This document shows, piece by piece, positions 3,125-44,897 of a DNA stretch of 44,897 bases (positions are counted from its first letter, which is position 1; every line of letters starts with the position of its first letter). Location of the stretch: the IMG/VR virus record IMGVR_UViG_2872688378_000003; one strand, given 5' to 3'. The translations under genes and the position numbers were made by a program. The DNA comes from a virus. Its lineage: Duplodnaviria > Heunggongvirae > Uroviricota > Caudoviricetes. The notes beneath the pieces were generated by a model that did no database searches, was not told the DNA's origin, and saw only the letters and a list, made by a program, of their open reading frames with translations.

Positions 3125-4318
3125 GTGGATAAAATAATTTTACCCACCGGATTTTTACCCATGCTCACCGTTAAGCAGATTGAAGCAGCAAAGCCGAAAG
3201 AAAAACCATACCGCCTACTCGATGGTAATGGCCTGTACCTTTATGTCCCTGTGTCAGGGAAAAAGGTATGGCAGCTTCGCTACAAGATTGACGGTAAGGA
3301 GAAAATCCTGACCGTCGGAAAATATCCGCTAATGACTTTGCAGGAGGCAAGAGATAAAGCATGGACCGCGAGGAAAGACATCTCGGTTGGCATCGATCCG
3401 GTAAAAGCGAAAAAGGCTTCGTCTAACAACAATTCCTTTAGTGCCATTTACAAGGAATGGTACGAGCACAAGAAGCAAGTCTGGTCAGTAGGCTATGCAA
3501 CTGAACTTGCCAAAATGTTTGATGACGACATTTTACCCATCATCGGCGGTCTTGAGATTCAGGATATTGAGCCGATGCAACTGCTGGAAGTAATCCGCAG
3601 ATTTGAAGATCGCGGTGCAATGGAGCGAGCCAACAAAGCCCGCAGAAGATGCGGCGAGGTTTTCCGTTACGCTATTGTCACCGGCAGGGCTAAATATAAC
3701 CCGGCACCTGACCTTGCTGACGCCATGAAGGGGTACCGCAAGAAGAACTTCCCGTTTCTTCCTGCAGACCAGATCCCGGCATTCAATAAAGCACTGGCAA
3801 CATTTTCAGGAAGTATCGTATCGCTCATTGCCACCAAGGTTTTACGCTACACTGCCCTAAGAACGAAAGAGCTTCGTTCCATGCTATGGAAGAACGTCGA
3901 TTTTGAAAACAGGATTATCACCATCGACGCCAGTGTGATGAAAGGACGCAAAATTCATGTGGTCCCGATGTCAGACCAGGTGGTTGAACTTCTCACTACG
4001 TTAAGCTCCATCACCAAACCAGTATCAGAGTTTGTTTTTGCCGGGCGCAACGATAAGAAGAAGCCAATCTGCGAGAATGCGGTACTGCTTGTGATCAAAC
4101 AAATCGGCTATGAAGGTCTGGAAAGCGGTCACGGATTCAGGCATGAATTCAGCACGATTATGAACGAGCACGAATGGCCTGCTGACGCTATTGAAGTGCA
4201 ACTGGCACATGCCAACGGCGGATCTGTGCGCGGGATTTACAACCATGCTCAGTATCTCGATAAGCGCAGAGAAATGATGCAATGGTGGGCGGACTGGCTT
4301 GATGAAAAGGTGGAGTGA
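3125..4318 (+). CDS. intS: Tyrosine integrase, P4/IntS family (prophage integrase)
   Basis: Translation contains the characteristic N-terminal MLTVKQIEAAKPKEKPYRLLDGNGLYLYV motif and C-terminal catalytic region (...HGFRHEF...YNHAQYL); likely true start is the ATG at 3161; lies directly after argW. Confidence 0.9.
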   Translation: MDKIILPTGFLPMLTVKQIEAAKPKEKPYRLLDGNGLYLYVPVSGKKVWQLRYKIDGKEKILTVGKYPLMTLQEARDKAWTARKDISVGIDPVKAKKASSNNNSFSAIYKEWYEHKKQVWSVGYATELAKMFDDDILPIIGGLEIQDIEPMQLLEVIRRFEDRGAMERANKARRRCGEVFRYAIVTGRAKYNPAPDLADAMKGYRKKNFPFLPADQIPAFNKALATFSGSIVSLIATKVLRYTALRTKELRSMLWKNVDFENRIITIDASVMKGRKIHVVPMSDQVVELLTTLSSITKPVSEFVFAGRNDKKKPICENAVLLVIKQIGYEGLESGHGFRHEFSTIMNEHEWPADAIEVQLAHANGGSVRGIYNHAQYLDKRREMMQWWADWLDEKVE

Positions 4319-42733: not shown

Positions 42734-43510
42734 ATGACCAAAATTAACTATCAGGCACTGCGTGAAGCGGCAGAAAAAGCAACGTGTGGTGAGTGGTCGC
42801 TCGAATATGGAGAAAGCCGATTTGATGGTGATGATGCGCTAATTCATCGTGAAGTTGCTGGATATATTCCTATTTGCAGAATTGAAGGAGCGCATCCTGA
42901 AAGCGGTTTCGATGAAGATTTCCAAATGGAACAGCAGGCCAATGCTGAATTCATCGCTGCAGCCAATCCGGCTACCGTGCTGGCACTGCTGGATGAACGG
43001 GAAAGAAACCAGCAATACATCAAACGACGCGACCAGGAGAACGAGGAAATTGCGCTAACGGTAGGGAAGCTGCGTGTTGAGCTGGAAGCCGCAGAGAACA
43101 ACCTTATTGATAGTGAGTGCCATGTTGCTGAACTGGAAGAAGCGTTACGCGATAAGCAGGCGTTACTTGAAGCATCAGAGAAGCGCATAGCAGAACTGGA
43201 AGCCGAACCTGTAAGCCAGGCTTACAAGTTGAACGCGCTGGATGGCAACTCTCCGGTAACTCCGGATGGTTGGGTCATGGTGCCGAAGAGACTAACAGCC
43301 GAGAACGGCGCTAAGGGTGTGCTATCCGGTGAATTTTCAGAAACTACGTTTATAAGCTGCCCGGAATGCTTTGGTGATGATGATTGCGAAACTTGTGACT
43401 GTAGCGGGAGAATCGAAATCAAGGTTCCAGTCAGTTGGACAACTATCAAAACTATTTGGGCTAAAGGGTGTGAGCACTTTTCAATAGTAGCACCGCAGCA
43501 AGATGGGTGA
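42734..43510 (+). CDS. Ead/Ea22-like protein
   Basis: N-terminus MTKINYQALREAAEKATCGEWS typical of the Ea22-like family as recalled; central coiled-coil-like region. Confidence 0.55.
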   Translation: MTKINYQALREAAEKATCGEWSLEYGESRFDGDDALIHREVAGYIPICRIEGAHPESGFDEDFQMEQQANAEFIAAANPATVLALLDERERNQQYIKRRDQENEEIALTVGKLRVELEAAENNLIDSECHVAELEEALRDKQALLEASEKRIAELEAEPVSQAYKLNALDGNSPVTPDGWVMVPKRLTAENGAKGVLSGEFSETTFISCPECFGDDDCETCDCSGRIEIKVPVSWTTIKTIWAKGCEHFSIVAPQQDG

Positions 43511-43594
43511 TGAAAACAAGTATTTATAACTTAAAAGCATTAAAAAATCGCTTATAGATCAAAAGAAATCTACGTCAAATATTACTATATTTCA

Positions 43595-43879
43595 ATGTGT
43601 TATAATTACCCCGTACATAAAATGGGGGGACACAAAATGTTCAAACGCTGCATCACCAAGTGTGGAAGCACACCTGACATCCAAGCTTTTATTAATGAAG
43701 ATGGTAAGCTTGTTGTTGAGAGGAGTGGTCCTTTTATTAGCAAACAACTTATCATTACCTCTCCAGCGGAGATGGCCGGAGAATGGATAGTTTCTGAACC
43801 AGAGGAGTTGCACATCCCGCTTCCTTATGGCCCTCAGGGACTGATTTATAACCGTTATGTTCAGAAGGAGGCGGGTTGA
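43595..43879 (+). CDS. Hypothetical protein with its own promoter (about 80 aa from ATG 43637)
   Basis: Extended -10 TGtTATAAT at 43598-43606 and SD GGGGGGA before ATG at 43637. Confidence 0.45.
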   Translation: MCYNYPVHKMGGHKMFKRCITKCGSTPDIQAFINEDGKLVVERSGPFISKQLIITSPAEMAGEWIVSEPEELHIPLPYGPQGLIYNRYVQKEAG

Positions 43880-44157
43880 CAATGTCAGGCATAACATCGC
43901 CGAGAAATCGAAAGAAAAACAGAACAAGGTAAACGTTGACCTTGCAGCATCAGGCATGGAGTACAGAGAGCGCCTTAACATACCTGTTATCACTGAGCAG
44001 GTATCATGAGAGCAACCTGAGCACTCACGCGAGTATTTCATGGAGCGCATCAGATACTATCGCGAGCAGTCGTTAAACATGCCCAAGGGAAGCAACCCAT
44101 GGTATATCGATATGGATGAACAGAACGCCAAGAAGTAAACGCAATTTGAACGAATGC

Positions 44158-44216
44158 GAACCCGCCGAGTGCGGGTTTTCTTTTATCTGAACTCGCTACG
44201 GCGAGTTTTGTTTTAT
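44158..44216 (+). terminator. Tandem rho-independent terminators
   Basis: AACCCGC-cgagt-GCGGGTT + TTTTCTTTTAT, then AACTCGC-tacg-GCGAGTT + TTTGTTTTAT. Confidence 0.7.
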
Positions 44217-44227
44217 GGAGACAAGAA

Positions 44228-44572
44228 ATGTCAGATTTGGCTATGAAGGTTTTGAAATGGCAATCGACTGGCGATGTCGGCATCAGTAGCGCAACTCTTG
44301 CCTCAATCGCATGTGGACTGAAAAAGAATATCTATGGTCATCACTTCGGCGCTCCACATGATGCAGCCGATTTCCGACGATGCGTTGCGCTTGTCGAGCA
44401 GATTCCAGAAATCAGGGATTCATTCGACAAGGTTGCAAAGCGCGTTCCGGCATTCAAAGGCATCCTCAACGAATGGGATTCTCTCGTTGCTCTGTTGAAG
44501 TCTGAAATGAAGATACACGGAAACAAAGCACCAGAGACTTACAGAAGAATCAGCGAGCTACGCAAGGACTAA
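44228..44572 (+). CDS. Hypothetical protein (114 aa)
   Basis: ORF with SD GGAG 11 nt upstream of ATG, directly after tandem terminators. Confidence 0.5.
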   Translation: MSDLAMKVLKWQSTGDVGISSATLASIACGLKKNIYGHHFGAPHDAADFRRCVALVEQIPEIRDSFDKVAKRVPAFKGILNEWDSLVALLKSEMKIHGNKAPETYRRISELRKD

Positions 44573-44696: not shown

Positions 44697-44897
44697 ATGC
44701 AACACGAACTACAGCCTGATTCACTGGTTGATTTGAAATTCATCATGGCCGATACTGGCTTCGGTAAAACCTTCATCTATGACCGGATTAAGTCCGGCGA
44801 CCTGCCAAAAGCCAAAGTTATCCACGGGCGAGCAAGATGGTTATATCGTGACCATTGTGAATTCAAAAATAAGCTCTTAAGCCGCGCCAATGGGTAA
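44697..44897 (+). CDS. torI: AlpA-family excisionase / recombination directionality factor (TorI-like)
   Basis: 66-aa translation MQHELQPDSLVDLKFIMADTGFGKTFIYDRIKSGDLPKAKVIHGRARWLYRDHCEFKNKLLSRANG matches TorI as recalled; stop at window end. Confidence 0.65.
   Translation: MQHELQPDSLVDLKFIMADTGFGKTFIYDRIKSGDLPKAKVIHGRARWLYRDHCEFKNKLLSRANG

Follow-up and report, generated by a model that had tools for sequence, protein, structure and literature searches.

The window analysed here is the whole 44,897 nt of the IMG/VR virus record IMGVR_UViG_2872688378_000003, a complete lambda-like Escherichia coli prophage inserted beside dsdC. At least the last 21 kb of the window is 100% identical to prophage sequence in a number of complete E. 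coli genomes, CUVET20-1667 and ETEC4089 among them. We focused on a short cassette in the distal part of the leftward early (pL) operon, approximately 5.5 kb into that operon and two genes ahead of the excisionase gene. An initial annotation of the DNA had proposed that this region was a separate, moron-like transcription unit that might encode a small regulator, a toxin or a small RNA (sRNA). Our comparative analysis suggests that the region is probably a mosaic accessory cassette of the moron type, put together from two originally independent modules: the gene orf80 with its own predicted promoter, and a dead DNA polymerase III theta gene. The features of the cassette are listed below; ORF denotes an open reading frame, aa amino acids and PGAP the Prokaryotic Genome Annotation Pipeline.

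43511–43636, plus strand: AT-rich intergenic regulatory region of the orf80 module, a gap of 126 nt after the stop codon of the Ea22-like ORF
43555–43576, plus strand: conserved upstream element, a candidate regulator binding site, in which the dyad TAGAT-N8-ATCTA (43555–43572) overlaps AATCTACGTC (43567–43576)
43598–43606, plus strand: extended -10 element TGTTATAAT, without a -35; predicted transcription start near 43613
43637–43879, plus strand: orf80, encoding an 80-aa protein (phrog_9613; WP_000476264.1)
43857–44138, plus strand: Hot/HolE-like DNA polymerase III theta pseudogene (PGAP extent; ancestral start ATG 43882–43884)
44007–44009, plus strand: in-frame TGA replacing a conserved Arg of theta (..AEQVA-R-EQPEH..)
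44158–44188, plus strand: intrinsic terminator T1, with stem 44158–44178 (GAACCCGC-CGAGT-GCGGGTTT) and U-tract TCTTTTATCT
44189–44218, plus strand: intrinsic terminator T2, with stem 44189–44208 (GAACTCGC-TACG-GCGAGTTT) and U-tract TGTTTTATGG

The physical features described by the initial annotation were largely recovered. The AT-rich gap after the Ea22-like gene is present, with a GC content of 0.29 over 43475–43624 compared to 0.43–0.55 in the surroundings, and the extended -10 sits exactly at the position claimed for it. To assess this element, we aligned six distinct, diverged upstream regions of the orf80 family, from E. coli, Pectobacterium and metagenomes. The bases T-G-n-T-A-T-n-n-T were invariant in all six aligned regions, while positions -9 and -8 varied (AA, GC, GA, AT), and the TGnTATnnT columns coincide precisely with the positions on which an extended -10 promoter depends. 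The short leader between the -10 and the start codon (27–41 nt) was unconserved across the six loci, and the coding sequences that follow are 45–70% identical at the protein level, with saturated synonymous sites. Chance or hitch-hiking is an unlikely cause of a promoter-base pattern that persists at ~50% protein identity. It is because exactly the functional bases are conserved across diverged homologous loci that we find the promoter credible, and on this comparative evidence a functional sigma-70 promoter upstream of orf80 is probable.

The genomic context of the orf80 family is consistent with such a promoter. A non-coding gap of 169–595 nt precedes every orf80-family gene, in prophage operons that are otherwise tightly packed. 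At one of the comparison loci (which are designated by L numbers), L048, the four nearest genes upstream of the orf80 homolog lie on the opposite strand, and the orf80 unit of L048 should therefore have its own promoter. The gap in the window is ~77% identical to the region upstream of the 70%-identical orf80 homolog in L008. It accompanies orf80 in 87 E. coli genomes regardless of how the upstream gene is annotated, and the sequence shared among the E. coli genomes extends past the gap into the 3' end of that upstream gene. Two leftward promoter candidates were rejected, TTGAAA-17-TAGATT on the minus strand of the gap, which was the only hit of the promoter scan, and TTGACG-16-TATAAG, as their -10 hexamers lack the final T or are unconserved in the Pectobacterium loci.

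A second block of conservation lies upstream of the -10. The sequence CTACGTC.AA was invariant in the six diverged orf80 loci at a fixed distance of 23–24 nt upstream of the -10, and the CTACGTC core spans about -43 to -37 relative to the predicted transcription start, a position typical for activator or operator sites. In the window the dyad is perfect (TAGATCAAAAGAAATCTA, 43555–43572) and overlaps AATCTACGTC, and the Pectobacterium prophages carry the dyad together with a second copy of ATCTACGTC 21 nt downstream. The TAGAT-N8-ATCTACGTC element was found at 3899–3941 in L047–L049, at 2855–2897 in L053 and at 767–788 in L054. We consider the upstream element to be a candidate binding site for a regulator. 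As orf80 is the sole gene common to all orf80-family loci, autoregulation or a host factor are the candidate means of control. Several familiar phage sites were considered and rejected as identities for the element. The motif and the dyad are each unique in the window, and the element accompanies orf80 beside three excisionase families (TorI-like, Exc and DUF1233), with two integrase arm-binding types and in nin regions; this argues against a CI/Cro, CII, Xis or Int arm site.

The 80-aa ORF reported after the promoter is a real gene, orf80, at 43637–43879. The Shine–Dalgarno (SD) sequence in front of it, GGGGGGA at 7–8 nt before the ATG, is moderate and does not deserve the description 'strong' that it was first given. 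Orf80 matched phrog_9613 with an E value of 2.6e-50, residues 1–80 aligning to profile positions 3–82 of 82, and had no match in Pfam, NCBIfam or PADLOC. Exhaustive searches for relatives returned near-identical E. coli copies, one protein of 70% identity and four of ~45–52% identity, including one from Pectobacterium carotovorum. No relative was found in a scan of the GTDB species representatives, and the INPHARED phage collection contained neither orf80 nor a match to its promoter region. Across the homologs of 45–70% identity, 17 residues are invariant. Comparison of orf80 with its 70% homolog gave a non-synonymous divergence of 0.24 and a synonymous divergence of 0.70 (near saturation), an omega of ~0.14, and this pattern identifies orf80 as a real gene under purifying selection. 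Modelling with AlphaFold2 from six aligned sequences returned a confident six-stranded small beta-barrel (predicted local distance difference test score 84, predicted template modelling score 0.75), and Orf80 is thus predicted to be a small beta-barrel protein.

The orf80 module occurs in more than one prophage setting. It was found in nin-type regions in L008 and L050, and five Pectobacterium-type loci (L047, L048, L049, L053 and L054) carry an orf80 homolog two genes ahead of xis-int. In L048 (4001–6204) no terminator was predicted between the orf80 homolog and xis-int, and the orf80-type promoter may drive xis-int in the Pectobacterium-type prophages. In each of them the next gene after the orf80 homolog encodes a 158-aa protein without a family match, and xis, of the Exc or DUF1233 type, comes after that gene; where int is present it follows xis (L048, L049 and L053).

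Downstream of orf80, the sequence belongs to a single inactivated gene. The initial annotation had listed several ORFs of 16–32 aa here as separate small genes, but these are wrong-frame or truncated readings of one theta pseudogene, and the suggestion that they encode a small regulator or toxin gives way to an identification as debris of a Hot/HolE-like theta gene. Conceptual translation of 43857–44138, with the stop codon read as Arg, matched PF06440 with an E value of 3.1e-29 and a score of 100.9 bits against a cut-off of 34.6; with NCBIfam NF008207 the score was 91.6, just below the cut-off of 97. At the DNA level, 43893–44138 is 71–78% identical to annotated theta genes of Klebsiella phages and 72% identical to P1 hot. 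In PHROGs the two halves of theta are stored as separate families, phrog_10131 and phrog_29833. PGAP annotates a theta pseudogene with an 'internal stop' in every E. coli copy inspected, across different prophage contexts, including some joined to a truncated rad52 and others that IS100 cuts or an IS3-family element splits.

The lesions in theta can be traced by comparison with intact close relatives, which begin MSGHNIAEKSKE. At the start of the gene, ATG TCA GGT CAT AAC ATC in an intact prophage allele of E. coli corresponds to ATG TCA GG- CAT AAC ATC in the window. Owing to this 1 nt deletion in codon 3, the ancestral start at ATG 43882, with AAGGAGG before it, now opens just a 16-aa ORF (43882–43932). 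The theta frame is reopened on paper by ATG 43857, which lies inside orf80 and has no SD sequence, and the 32-aa ORF (44040–44138) is the theta C-terminus read from an internal Met. We assembled an allele set of 36 full-length copies, representing 22 distinct sequences, from E. coli genomes and IMG/VR. The start frameshift is common to all 22 distinct sequences. The TGA is present in the major clade, throughout which the downstream frame is open to the normal stop. Four alleles (L042–L045), 95–97% identical, have CGA in place of the TGA; among these, two carry a 2 nt deletion at 43991–43992 and one a 1 nt deletion at 44096, while in L042, the last of the four, all 93 codons from ATG 43857 are uninterrupted and a stop lies in orf80 instead. 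In strain DETEC-P61 an 11 nt deletion removes the theta SD and the junction, fusing orf80 to the 16-aa frame. The clade that includes the window also shows non-conservative changes at conserved theta positions, GVAY to GMEY and EHL to EHS.

A first lesion common to all alleles, with independent ones added later, is what marks a pseudogene, and for this reason we read the locus as decay rather than recoding. The theta gene is dead by its sequence, with no intact frame or usable start, and should be filed as a pseudogene of the PF06440 family. Programmed recoding or read-through at the TGA was considered and rejected, because the CGA sister alleles have other frameshifts and all alleles share the start frameshift. 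A 'full-length' theta in P0010, with W at the stop, proved to be an artefact of a gene call that used a genetic code in which TGA is Trp. We also set aside a 152-aa antisense ORF (43592–44050, minus strand) as probably spurious; it has no family match and is antisense to two conserved coding regions. The sRNA suggestion fared no better. With Rfam 15 no match in this region reached the gathering score, the best one within 43400–44300 being a weak one to rsmX (24.2 bits against a threshold of 56), a search at E values up to 1 gave nothing credible, and the 5' leader hairpin was no stabler than shuffled sequence (z -0.12).

Theta remnants are not confined to this cassette. Gifsy-1 (L011 1937–2110) holds an unannotated, internally deleted theta/hot remnant (FNIAAKSQEDRDKV ... 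YMEMSEQNTKK*), followed by tandem terminators, just upstream of a dinI homolog. Theta decay thus recurs, since Gifsy-1 also carries an internally deleted remnant. The apparently repeated decay of prophage theta genes, by frameshift, nonsense mutation and deletions in E. coli and by internal deletion in Gifsy-1, suggests that a second theta pays only under some conditions or for a short time.

The intact theta alleles that we examined lie in nin regions, and their upstream sequences were informative. Intact theta genes in E. coli (L057 2440–2500; L055 2460–2500) and in Klebsiella phage KO-TP1 (L002 2440–2490) have their own consensus TATAAT ~35 nt before the ATG. A leader common to L057 and L055 (CCnTCTCAAAGCATnGAGGGGG) could fold so that its two ends base-pair across the SD, and a similar leader, CCCCT...AGGGG, occurs in KO-TP1; L057 has an intrinsic terminator directly upstream of its intact theta. 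On account of its own TATAAT and, in L057, this upstream terminator, theta itself can be regarded as a classic moron. In the window the promoter and leader of theta are replaced by the 3' end of orf80. The linkage of orf80 to theta was found only in the E. coli allele family and not in the other orf80 loci. The two genes are unlinked elsewhere, and we therefore interpret the unit as a fusion of two accessory modules.

The two tandem rho-independent terminators of the initial annotation were found as hairpins with U-tracts at 44158–44188 and 44189–44218. T1 and T2 have GC-rich stems and interrupted U-tracts, each with a folding energy of ~-12 kcal/mol and with z scores of -2.4 and -3.7, respectively, against shuffled sequence. 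In sequence they look like diverged duplicates. The T1-T2 pair together with the theta 3' end, 107 nt in all, has an 86% match in Gifsy-1 and an equal match in Gifsy-2 (NC_010393.1, 10891–10997), and the Gifsy-1 T2 stem shows a compensatory change from T-A to C-G. T2 is identical in mEp234, where it stands with a different T1 before a homolog of the gene for a 114-aa protein that follows the cassette, and the T2 stretch matches phages encoding Shiga toxin (Stx) at 97–98%. HK022 has a different, single terminator at the place of T1 and T2. In both mEp234 and HK022 the order is a gene of the ea region, terminator(s) and the 114-aa gene homolog, without orf80 or theta. Terminator(s) just before the 114-aa gene and xis are therefore probably a backbone feature of such pL operons. 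The right-hand recombination joint of the cassette lies inside T1, at ~44173.

At an identity of at least 95%, the cassette was present in 90 of 5426 complete E. coli genomes; it was missing from the sequenced phages of INPHARED. Among these E. coli genomes, upstream genes that are annotated as different families share their 3' ends with the Ea22-like ORF of the window. Insertion sequences have struck this short region more than once: an IS3-family element between orf80 and theta in strain NT1N25 (L007 1805–3033), an IS100 that truncates theta in strain HE302 (L006 392–1414), and ~1.2 kb inserted at the T1/T2 joint in an IMG/VR contig (L018, between 3537 and 4759).

The neighbouring genes place the cassette as the initial annotation had done, in the distal pL operon near the excisionase gene; gene order and shared orientation on the plus strand both agree with this position.

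Plus strand, in window orientation: cI-rexAB, N, kil, rad52, ssb, anti-RecBCD gene, DUF7739, Ea22-like ORF, cassette, 114-aa gene, torI
42734–43510, plus strand: Ea22-like ORF (PF13935, E=9.5e-35)
44228–44572, plus strand: 114-aa gene (phrog_1229; HK022 gp32, annotated 'N15 early protein homolog')
44697–44897, plus strand: torI, the excisionase gene (xis) of KplE1-type prophages

The Ea22-like ORF (42734–43510) is chimeric, joining an Ead/Ea22 domain (residues 3–156) to a Cys-rich C-terminal module (CPECFGDDDCETCDC) that also ends proteins annotated as DUF550, DUF551 or 'DnaJ' in other genomes. In the identical CUVET20-1667 sequence, PGAP calls just 42734–43207 of this ORF, as a partial pseudogene. 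The 114-aa gene had no match in Pfam, NCBIfam or PADLOC; a number of lambdoid and Stx phages conserve it at the position directly 5' of the excisionase gene, and intrinsic terminator(s) precede it in the three phage or prophage sequences read. The only Rfam match at the gathering score in the whole window was a tRNA at 2925–2996, which presumably marks the other end of the prophage, at the attachment site.

Taken together, these comparisons lead us to the following model. Module 1 would comprise orf80 with its sigma-70 extended -10 TGTTATAAT and the TAGAT-N8-ATCTACGTC element, centred ~40–50 nt upstream of the predicted start, and module 2 a residual phage theta gene, homologous to P1 hot and E. 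coli holE. Theta would have lost its own promoter and leader on joining orf80, then its reading frame three codons after the start, and would later have gained the TGA nonsense codon. RNA polymerase would start near 43613, transcribe orf80 and the dead theta, and end at T1 or T2 to give an RNA of ~575–605 nt, from which Orf80 would be the only product made in meaningful amounts. T1-T2 would prevent both the orf80 transcripts and those pL transcripts that are made without N modification from entering the 114-aa gene and torI; once the prophage is induced, polymerase that comes from pL and carries the N modification would read through T1-T2. If the promoter is active in lysogens, the tandem terminators would protect the prophage from accidental torI expression and loss. 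We infer promoter activity, transcript ends, insulation by the terminators and regulator binding at the upstream element from sequence comparison. The idea of a separate moron-like transcription unit within the pL operon has gained comparative support from the conservation of the -10 across six loci, the non-coding gaps, the strand arrangement in L048 and the conserved terminators. Read in this way, the cassette is a fairly ordinary phage moron and not a new regulator, toxin or sRNA. What appeared to be a cluster of small ORFs resolves to a single decaying theta/Hot gene, an accessory gene already known from phages, leaving as the sole live gene of the unit one that encodes an uncharacterized protein, of 80 aa and predicted beta-barrel fold. 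The orf80 module, with its compact candidate promoter and sharply conserved upstream element, lies near the excision genes of several enterobacterial prophages.

A number of observations weigh against this model. The extended -10 has no recognizable -35, with AATATT at 17 nt spacing, and the two-hexamer promoter scan makes no call for it. There is one occurrence of TGNTATAAT in the 45 kb window, compared to 1.19 expected by chance; as the count equals the chance expectation, the match to TGTTATAAT alone proves nothing. The TG of the extended -10 is lost in the E. coli allele P276M, and the T2 stem is mismatched at 44203 in some E. coli alleles. The GC content of orf80 and theta (0.43–0.49) is like that of the neighbour genes, so that the compositional hallmark of morons is absent. 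No empty site behind the same upstream gene was found for comparison, and the one locus examined that lacks the cassette is from a different prophage type. Finally, the conserved upstream element may mean that the promoter stays silent unless a regulator acts on it, and expression in lysogens would then not be constitutive.

One alternative is that there is no independent unit at all: the region would be plain pL operon, TGTTATAAT a chance match in an AT-rich spacer, and the hairpins internal pL terminators of the usual kind, comparable to lambda tL2/tL3, which polymerase passes only when modified by N. The chance-level count of the motif, the lack of a -35 and the silent two-hexamer scan fit this explanation, as do the terminators that mEp234 and HK022 hold at the same place without the cassette and the co-orientation of every gene with pL. 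It does not account for TGnTATnnT remaining invariant in six loci that have diverged to 45–70% protein identity with saturated synonymous sites. Nor does it explain why orf80 keeps its upstream region in the nin-type and xis-int regions of unrelated prophages. In L048, moreover, the nearest upstream genes are on the opposite strand, and we judge this alternative unlikely. A variant of our preferred model, in which the orf80 promoter is regulated rather than constitutive, through TAGAT-N8-ATCTACGTC, by Orf80 or a host factor, and may time excision or integration, is possible but carries distinctly less of our confidence. The element is invariant and at a fixed spacing, and Pectobacterium has two copies of it 21 nt apart; in the window it is unique, so that it is no operator of the prophage's general repressors. 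The orf80 loci have no other gene in common, and in the five Pectobacterium and related loci the orf80 homolog stands two genes before xis-int, with no predicted terminator between them in L048. This regulated variant has to contend with the all-beta barrel predicted for Orf80, which has no recognized DNA-binding fold, with the modules of L008 and L050, which are in nin-type regions far from xis and int, and with the two terminators that part orf80 from torI in E. coli. We offer as a speculative and somewhat doubtful generalization that the orf80 family, TAGAT-N8-ATCTACGTC and the -35-less extended -10 form a self-contained Enterobacterales prophage module, regulated by its own product or by a host factor and placed preferentially just upstream of excision and integration genes. 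If this were true, the module could influence the timing of excision or give the lysogen an expressed function, such as defence or host manipulation. The tandem terminators would then uncouple orf80 from torI in E. coli, and in Pectobacterium the promoter would head an orf80-158aa-xis-int unit.

Two further explanations concern the downstream half of the cassette. Theta might still be functional, made from ATG 43857 with a low level of read-through at the TGA, or as a useful N-terminal fragment of 50 aa, the interrupted form being under selection. Consistent with this, the frame after the TGA stays open as far as the normal stop throughout the major clade, L042 is open for 93 codons from ATG 43857, and the allele has spread to 90 genomes and several prophage contexts; but all copies are at least 95% identical, so that recent recombination would explain the spread without selection. 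In none of the alleles is the ancestral start in frame, ATG 43857 has no Shine–Dalgarno sequence, and there are three downstream lesions in the sister alleles (the TGA, a 2 nt deletion and a 1 nt deletion) besides the 11 nt deletion in DETEC-P61. With the derived changes GVAY to GMEY and EHL to EHS at conserved positions, and recurring decay in the form of the internally deleted Gifsy-1 remnant, we consider a functional theta very unlikely. Still less credible, and hardly worth retaining, is the proposal that the unit encodes a small toxin or regulator peptide, from the 16-aa, 32-aa or similar ORFs, or a discrete sRNA ending at the terminators. Short ORFs and strong 3' hairpins are indeed present, and there is a weak rsmX-like Rfam match at 44076–44211 (24 bits, E=0.03), far under the gathering score of 56. 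The 16-aa ORF is explained by the ancestral start and the frameshift and the 32-aa ORF by the theta C-terminus; the short ORFs lack hydrophobic, toxin-like character, and the 152-aa antisense ORF has no family match.

Compared with known systems, the cassette as we interpret it, a moron-type fusion of orf80 and a dead theta, shares much with the morons of lambdoid phages. In the HK97/HK022 genome comparison of Juhala et al. 2000, a moron is reportedly an extra gene with its own promoter and intrinsic terminator. Like lambdoid morons, the cassette consists of accessory genes that are dispensable for the phage cycle, has an AT-rich gap with a sigma-70-type element and terminator(s) directly after, and shows patchy distribution (90/5426), embedding in an early operon and mosaicism. 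It differs in that its coding GC content does not stand out and its promoter is a predicted one, in that the second terminator, and probably the terminator position itself, belongs to the phage backbone, and in being a fusion of two modules of which one is dead.

A known system close to the theta module is Hot of phage P1. The conceptual translation from the window is ~70% identical to P1 Hot and to the theta of Klebsiella phages, and 73–79% identical to intact enterobacterial prophage alleles. Expression of P1 hot is reported both in lysogens and during lytic growth (Chikova and Schaaper 2007, via PMC7556043). In contrast to these genes, the window copy is inactivated, by the frameshift after codon 3 and the TGA at a conserved Arg, and has lost its own promoter and leader; it also lies in the distal pL region, whereas the intact alleles examined are in nin regions with their own TATAAT. 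Gifsy-1 shares the same theta 3' end and T1-T2 pair (86% over 107 nt), but its theta was destroyed by an internal deletion and is located in the nin region, without orf80.

Finally, the terminators invite comparison with the internal terminators of lambdoid pL operons and with the control of TorI in KplE1, as intrinsic terminators stand just upstream of the last pL genes and torI. Expressing TorI from a plasmid suffices to excise KplE1, the excisionase gene has been put forward as the point at which excision is controlled, and in KplE1-type prophages excision is limited by the expression of TorI (PMC2951348). The prophage of the window is complete and lambda-like, whereas the KplE1 of K-12 is defective.

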